A stretch of 64,000 nucleotides of DNA, taken from the NCBI RefSeq assembly GCF_003334385.1, contig NZ_QOWN01000001.1. One strand, given 5' to 3'. Source of the DNA: Escherichia coli. Lineage in GTDB: Bacteria; Pseudomonadota; Gammaproteobacteria; Enterobacterales; Enterobacteriaceae. Shown here one piece after another: positions 63,708 through 64,000 of the stretch; within the stretch, counting starts at the first letter, position 1; each line of letters begins with the position of its first letter. Made by a program: the position numbers and the translations under genes. The notes beneath the pieces were generated by a model that saw nothing but the letters and a program-made list of their open reading frames with translations, did no database searches and had not been told where the DNA came from.

Positions 63708-64000
63708 TTACGGATTCTCCTTATTCTTCCTTCTATCCATTCGCTTTAGCTTTTTGAGCTCTTGAAGTTTGCTCTTTGCATCAATATTACCGTTATTTAC
63801 AGCGAATTCCATCCAATAAATAGCTCTATTCAAATTATAATATTCTGATAATGTTGGATTTGTATCTGATAAAAAGACCCCATAATTAAACTGCGCTGTA
63901 ACATTCCCCTGAGATGCTGATCTTTCCAAGAATCGCAATTGTTTGTAAATGTTATTTTTAGTAAAGCAGTAATATTGATATAGTCGAAATGATGCCTCTG
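63708..64000 (-). CDS. C-terminal part of a Sel1/TPR-like repeat protein whose start lies beyond the window end
   Basis: Frame stays open on the minus strand from 63708 to the window edge (...EASFRLYQYYCFTKNNIYKQLRFLERSASQGNVTAQFNYGVFL...); Sel1-like motif spacing. Confidence 0.45.
   Translation of the reverse strand, partial: EASFRLYQYYCFTKNNIYKQLRFLERSASQGNVTAQFNYGVFLSDTNPTLSEYYNLNRAIYWMEFAVNNGNIDAKSKLQELKKLKRMDRRKNKENP

Follow-up and report, generated by a model that had tools for sequence, protein, structure and literature searches.

PA5086, PA5087 and PA5088 of P. aeruginosa, which are of the Tli5 type, are exported to the periplasm, and their effector is known as PldB. These Sel1-like repeat proteins bind a T6SS effector directly and thereby neutralise it (Yang et al. 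2016, as summarised in PMC7216683). In Klebsiella pneumoniae, Sel1E is encoded downstream of the T6SS toxin VgrG4 and abolishes VgrG4 toxicity, and the localisation predictions for Sel1E are inconclusive (PMC7108748). On the toxin side, 'Tox-Caspase' tips have already been recognised in polymorphic toxins (Zhang et al. 2012), and Tce1, a T6SS effector of P. aeruginosa, has been described as a putative cysteine protease (PMC13323088). Working in silico on EHEC, a 2020 study named the O157 orthologue of the gene considered here RhsAI, proposed that it is the immunity protein of RhsA, and noted its Sel1-like and TPR motifs and its similarity to c5321, LpnE and PA5087/88 (PMC7216683). The same study reported that the RhsA tip resembles TcdA and read this as GTPase inhibition, not as a cysteine protease domain (PMC7216683). 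Its gene model (z5018 of EDL933) is 132 aa long and lacks the leader, so export was not considered there. RhsAI and YibG of E. coli K-12 are the same gene, and the O157 protein differs in 2 residues. In K-12, yibG is listed among the uncharacterised 'y-ome' genes. Literature searches returned no functional study of yibG, yibJ or DUF8616, and no experimental work on YibG or its tip was found in the searchable literature.

The window analysed here is a 64,000-nt stretch of Escherichia coli DNA that ends within this gene. An earlier note on it had described a minus-strand frame that is open from 63708 to the window boundary, had placed the listed TTG start at 63938 inside this frame and had expected the real gene to be longer than the listed ORF. 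All three statements are borne out. The frame ends with a TAA and contains 96 sense codons (63711-63998) with no stop before the window edge. Because the stretch 63708-64000 has a G+C content of 33%, 96 stop-free codons are expected by chance with a probability of about 2e-4. Among 200,000 shuffled sequences, 29 stayed open over the edge frame, and the remaining five frames of the edge stretch contain 3-10 stops each. Over 39500-64000 the window has 100% identity with E. coli strains including KE58 and 52F4, and over 62000-64000 with strain C and many other complete E. coli genomes. In the annotation of strain C, KE58 and 52F4, yibG is intact and 462 nt long, with the product WP_000642478.1 (153 aa), and the gene bears the annotation 'sel1 repeat family protein'. 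In the identical genomes its ATG lies at window-equivalent position 64169, which is 169 nt past the edge, so 57 N-terminal residues are outside the window, residue 57 being split by the edge. The listed TTG is the codon for Leu78, and no in-frame stop lies just beyond 64000, a possibility that the earlier note had raised against the gene. The edge-cut frame is the distal two-thirds of yibG, a real, annotated and ordinary E. coli gene; both the gene and its kind were known before, and it is neither an artefact nor a new system. The features in the window are collected in Table 1. A promoter and terminator scan near yibG gave nothing exceeding the shuffled expectation; the yibJ>yibG spacer appears among RpoD-holoenzyme sites in a SELEX-chip table (PMC3946193).

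Table 1. Positions of yibG features and of the adjoining decayed module in the window.
Feature	Position	Strand	Extent and basis
yibG, 3' part	63708..64000	-	residues 58-153 and stop; translation and annotation in identical genomes
TAA stop codon	63708-63710	-	
Basic tail RMDRRKNKENP	63711-63743	-	terminates YibG
C-terminal capping helix	63717..63788	-	residues 128-151; AF2 helix 129-151
Sel1-like repeat 2	63789..63905	-	residues 89-127; AF2 model, weak Pfam Sel1 match
Peptide AIYWMEFAVNNGN	63786-63824	-	quoted in the earlier note
Peptide AQFNYGVFL	63870-63896	-	quoted in the earlier note
Sel1-like repeat 1, part in the window	63906..63998	-	residues 58-88 of repeat 55-88; AF2 pLDDT >90, alignments to solved Sel1 proteins
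TTG codon (Leu78)	63936-63938	-	inside yibG
Rhs core-end fragment of decayed module	63456-63674	-	internal stops (...YDDESGLYYN...DPLGI)
Frame-shifted tip, 97-aa ORF	63090-63383	-	L,D-transpeptidase motif H-x17-SxGC
Imm57 immunity gene	62564-63084	-	Pfam E=2.7e-48 on ORF 62564-63001; frameshifted per annotation in identical genomes

We examined YibG as a Sel1-like repeat (SLR) protein. The pLDDT of the AlphaFold2 (AF2) model exceeds 90 over residues 32-151 and stays below 50 over residues 1-31, and the protein is divided into a leader (1-19), a linker with N-terminal cap helices (~27-53), two repeats (55-88 and 89-127) and a cap helix (128-151). In the model, repeat 1 is formed by helices 57-71 and 74-86, and in repeat 2 a short insert, helix 105-110, separates helices 90-100 and 113-125. 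The helix pairs are antiparallel and stacked as a solenoid, in agreement with the SLR fold, in which such pairs have 36-44 residues. Both peptides quoted in the earlier note fall in repeat 2. The basic tail is found in E. coli copies only, and the Enterobacter and Salmonella homologues end without it. The Pfam Sel1 model (PF08238) matches residues 92-128 of YibG over model positions 3-36 of 36, with E=1.2. The HMM match that the earlier note had looked to lies in the right place, and TPR_27 adds a marginal match (E=8e-4), but the Sel1 match itself is sub-threshold. Across the family alignment (n=10), PF08238 reaches E<=0.1 in 4 of 10 members and E<=1e-3 in none, and TPR_27 reaches <=1e-3 in 6 of 10. 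The NCBIfam search gave no model for the protein, and its match to MerG (16.9 bits against a cutoff of 350) is spurious. Searches against solved Sel1-repeat proteins place YibG among the Sel1-like repeat proteins: a single-sequence phmmer search gave 6e-8 (6ok3, 8sxq), and the family profile gave 3.5e-13 (6onw), 4.5e-13 (8sxq) and 2.9e-11 (4bwr/c5321). Further matches include COA7, Oxalobacter Sel1 proteins, c5321, LpnE, HcpC and SEL1L, with generic TPR proteins scoring lower. As judged from the family profile and the solenoid fold of the model, YibG is a divergent Sel1-like repeat protein, and the Sel1-like repeats that had been read in the frame are there.

Such a fold is compatible with more than one role. 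Sel1-like repeat proteins are generic scaffolds for protein binding, and the best structural matches of YibG (HcpB, c5321, LpnE and HcpC) are secreted SLR proteins with host-directed or cell-wall roles. Instead of conferring immunity, YibG could accordingly assist Rhs export, or it could be a secreted Sel1 adaptor or a factor of the virulence type comparable to EsiB/c5321, HcpB/C or LpnE. However, with only one Cys in its mature form, YibG cannot have a disulfide in each repeat as the Hcp proteins do, and its genomic company, described below, makes an adaptor role very unlikely: in seven loci from distant taxa it stands strictly after one toxin-tip family, it travels with the tip on displacement, and it is retained where the toxin is deleted.

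The genes at the locus are arranged in the order rhsA, yibA (HEAT repeats), a 5'-truncated Rhs fragment with a tip, yibG, a decayed Rhs core end and tip, an Imm57 pseudogene and yibH. The orphan Rhs tip extends ~160 aa after a DPQGL motif, and yibG follows 11 nt downstream on the same strand. Because rhsA carries its own tip, Ntox34 (E=2e-43), the locus consists of three toxin/immunity modules in series. The G+C content declines along it: the Rhs core has 58%, the tip 39% and yibG 32%. According to the annotation of identical genomes, the partner toxin gene is a 5'-truncated pseudogene in the window's lineage; without the Rhs shell, toxin and immunity protein cannot function as an active pair in cis in this lineage. 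A second, decayed orphan Rhs module adjoins yibG on its downstream side (63090-63674, minus strand). Its 97-aa ORF shows weak matches to Tlde1_dom (E=0.008) and YkuD (E=0.04). Imm57 has been described as the partner of Tox-LD-peptidase (Zhang et al. 2012), a pairing that fits the decayed tip upstream of Imm57.

We then compared the tip and yibG across genomes. A full-length Rhs protein of 1409 aa has the same tip at its end in O157:H7, where yibG follows 11 nt downstream and the yibA module is absent; the pair, which is an orphan in the window's lineage, is the main tip there, and this marks the copy in the window as a displaced orphan. In Enterobacter, a 1405-aa Rhs protein carries the tip (79% identical), followed after an 11-nt gap by a YibG homologue (56% identical). 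In S. enterica subsp. salamae, the tip is 47-48% identical, the gap is 13 nt, and the downstream 153-aa Sel1 protein is 46% identical to YibG. A profile of the tip matched 844 cluster representatives at E<=1e-3. Three distant Rhs proteins taken from these matches all have a YibG-family gene 10-14 nt downstream (YibG-family HMM, E=3e-22, 6e-17 and 2e-11), and one of these three loci is a vgrG-PAAR-Rhs cluster. The tip family is paired with a YibG-family protein in all seven toxin-bearing loci examined, each time as a small gene directly 3' of the tip on the same strand with a gap of 10-14 nt, the placement of an immunity gene; the earlier suggestion that a Sel1 protein serves as immunity protein beside a polymorphic toxin gains support from this pairing. 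Other S. enterica have lost the toxin by deletion; the relic QDPIGL...KPGDIK-stop is left, and the yibG homologue is intact. The pair is therefore co-inherited in the manner of toxin and immunity genes: one tip family is kept across taxa, it is displaced as a unit, and it survives as an orphan. Strict pairing, joint displacement and retention after toxin loss are together the behaviour of a cognate immunity gene. At one Salmonella enterica locus (L002, 5860-6000), the Rhs core-end remnant (QDPIGL...) is fused to the last codons of the tip (KPGDIK-stop), and this relic is preceded by an Ntox34 fragment and a HEAT gene of the yibA kind; the intact yibG homologue is an immunity-only orphan there.

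The state of the partner gene raises the question of whether yibG in the window is merely a functionless leftover of C-terminal displacement at rhsA, intact by chance and bound to decay. The 5'-truncated toxin pseudogene, the visible decay of the adjacent orphan module (LD-peptidase-like tip and Imm57) and the truncated yibG variants contained in the protein database agree with such a fate. However, the same intact YibG is annotated in every genome inspected. The tip+yibG stretch is found in 3511 of 5426 complete E. coli genomes, in 3429 of them at a coverage of at least 80%, and in DH5alpha and TG1, both derived from K-12, its identity is 99.9%. Purifying selection acts on yibG between genera, as judged from dN/dS values of 0.08-0.24 at which synonymous sites are saturated, and Salmonella has kept the gene after loss of the toxin. 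In addition, orphan immunity genes can protect against the toxins of neighbours, which is established for Rhs and CDI systems. These observations make it improbable that yibG is such a leftover, and they are consistent with a gene retained for immunity.

The tip itself has no match in the Pfam library used, even at E<=10, and no PDB sequence match. His30 (GHG) and Cys70 (LFSC) are invariant, Asp95 is invariant too in close homologues, and the His/Cys dyad is also present in distant tip homologues. The order of His and then Cys, each after a hydrophobic beta-strand in a caspase-hemoglobinase fold, is that of clan CD. Modelling gives the tip a caspase-like His/Cys fold of clan CD, and protease activity would be expected from it. 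In the comparison of the tip with known proteins, the highest value was given by Tce1 (7.8), followed by gingipain K (7.3), MARTX CPD (7.2), CHAT (7.0) and TcdA CPD (6.8), with legumain, clostripain and caspases lower. Tce1 and Tce2 of P. aeruginosa are Hcp-loaded cargo with no reported immunity gene, whereas the partner tip of YibG is Rhs-borne and has a predicted exported immunity protein. Anti-eukaryotic activity has been shown in yeast for Tce2, and for Tce1 the same activity is only suggested. The tip profile also matches giant proteins of 3,000-7,400 aa (P0110-P0119, P0145 and P0159), with up to five stretches each, which recalls the caspase-like domain arrays in large surface proteins and toxins (Zhang et al. 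2012).

We further examined the N-terminus for an export signal, calling a signal peptide where the N-terminus is basic, a hydrophobic core follows, and position -1 holds a small residue or a lipobox is present. As the earlier note had proposed to check, a predicted leader is present at the true N-terminus of YibG (residues 1-19 by this rule): a Sec-type signal peptide, MKACLLLFFYFSFICQLHG|ADV, which would leave a mature part of ~134 aa. In each of the ten enterobacterial homologues, a basic residue lies within positions 2-4, a hydrophobic core follows, and a Gly near 17-20 precedes a charged region. None of these ten has a lipobox, and the possibility that E. coli YibG is a lipoprotein was discarded on this ground. 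The three distant homologues all have a predicted export signal, one of them with the lipobox LAGC. The signal-peptide layout is thus conserved in 13 of 13 family members examined (home-made rule, not SignalP). Gene callers have cut off leaders in this family: z5018 has 132 aa against 153 aa in RefSeq, and at locus L012 (7497-7910) the homologue is called from an internal Met (119 aa), where the ATG at 7497 gives 137 aa and adds AGGATGAGG upstream. The L012 homologue had been considered as leaderless, and this was rejected as a mis-called start, the longer ORF having a signal peptide. Because the leader has been kept through such divergence, YibG is probably exported, and its toxin probably acts in the periplasm. 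The conserved export signal of the YibG family, with the periplasmic toxin action that it would imply, is the one mildly new element here.

The site of action could also be a different one. The Rhs tips characterised so far are mostly nucleases or NADases that act in the cytoplasm, and YibG might be a cognate immunity protein that stays in the cytoplasm or is anchored in the inner membrane, with an uncleaved or irrelevant leader and a toxin that acts in the cytoplasm. The O157 annotation z5018, which begins after the leader, and the cleavage site LHG|A, which is a rule-based guess, leave room for this. However, the leader is found in all 13 members despite their divergence, one of them with a canonical lipobox, and in every locus it is the leader-including ATG that lies 10-14 nt past the toxin stop. 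Given the basic N-terminus, even an uncleaved anchor would put the Sel1-like repeat domain in the periplasm. We therefore consider a cytoplasmic site of action unlikely and favour periplasmic immunity.

Taken together, we assign a probability of roughly 0.7 to the reading that YibG is a periplasmic immunity protein against the caspase-like Rhs tip and is here part of a displaced orphan module. According to this reading, a Sec-type signal peptide would direct YibG to the periplasm. In the model, the mature protein is a short alpha-solenoid in which two Sel1-like repeats lie between an N-terminal cap and a capping helix. YibG would most likely bind and block the C-terminal toxin tip encoded just upstream, a predicted ~160-aa clan-CD (caspase, gingipain, MARTX-CPD-like) His/Cys hydrolase domain after the Rhs DPxGL motif. 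The full-length Rhs protein that bears the tip in O157:H7 and Enterobacter presumably reaches its targets by type VI secretion. In the window's lineage, the Ntox34 and YibA pair has taken over rhsA and has left the old tip and yibG pair as an orphan. Given this orphan status, yibG would chiefly serve as protection against this toxin when neighbours deploy it, and it would also stay available for recombination. If yibG does encode a periplasmic immunity protein, this toxin family would act in the periplasm, a site so far undescribed for caspase-fold antibacterial toxins. The value of this is modest: it provides a testable hypothesis for a K-12 'y-ome' gene, namely yibG against the caspase-like tip of O157:H7 RhsA. 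More tentatively, the relatives of YibG may form a conserved exported Sel1-repeat immunity family for widespread caspase-fold Rhs/T6SS tips, which would imply killing in the periplasm.

By analogy, YibG may work like the Tli5 and Sel1E proteins. PA5086-88, which are Sel1-like T6SS immunity proteins, match YibG in fold and, weakly, in sequence (E 8e-4 to 7e-3), and they are no closer to YibG than other Sel1-like repeat proteins are. Unlike YibG, they are ~260-270 aa long, have more repeats and are partnered with a phospholipase D cargo effector. Because the partner of YibG is a predicted caspase-like His/Cys domain on Rhs and not a phospholipase D, YibG is placed outside the Tli5 family. Sel1E resembles YibG as a Sel1-repeat protein encoded 3' of a T6SS toxin, but it is larger, belongs to a poly-Sel1 gene array, and has the DUF2345 C-terminal region of VgrG4 as its partner.

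Two further differences were observed elsewhere in the window and in strain C. The neighbours of yibL in strain C are yhfT-yhfX and a PRD-domain pseudogene (L001, 1-5700), whereas the window (53800-55900) and 1263 genomes have the usual lldP-yibL junction, indicating that strain C carries a rearrangement there. The mtlA-mtlD spacer is 229 nt long in strain C, where the ORF layout matches that of the window, versus 94 nt in O157:H7 (L010). In the window, a mechanical 488-aa ORF overlapping mtlD reads through the mtlD-mtlA intergenic region (57924-58153), and its extension within the spacer resembles REP/BIME sequence. This suggests a lineage-specific insertion of a repeat element.
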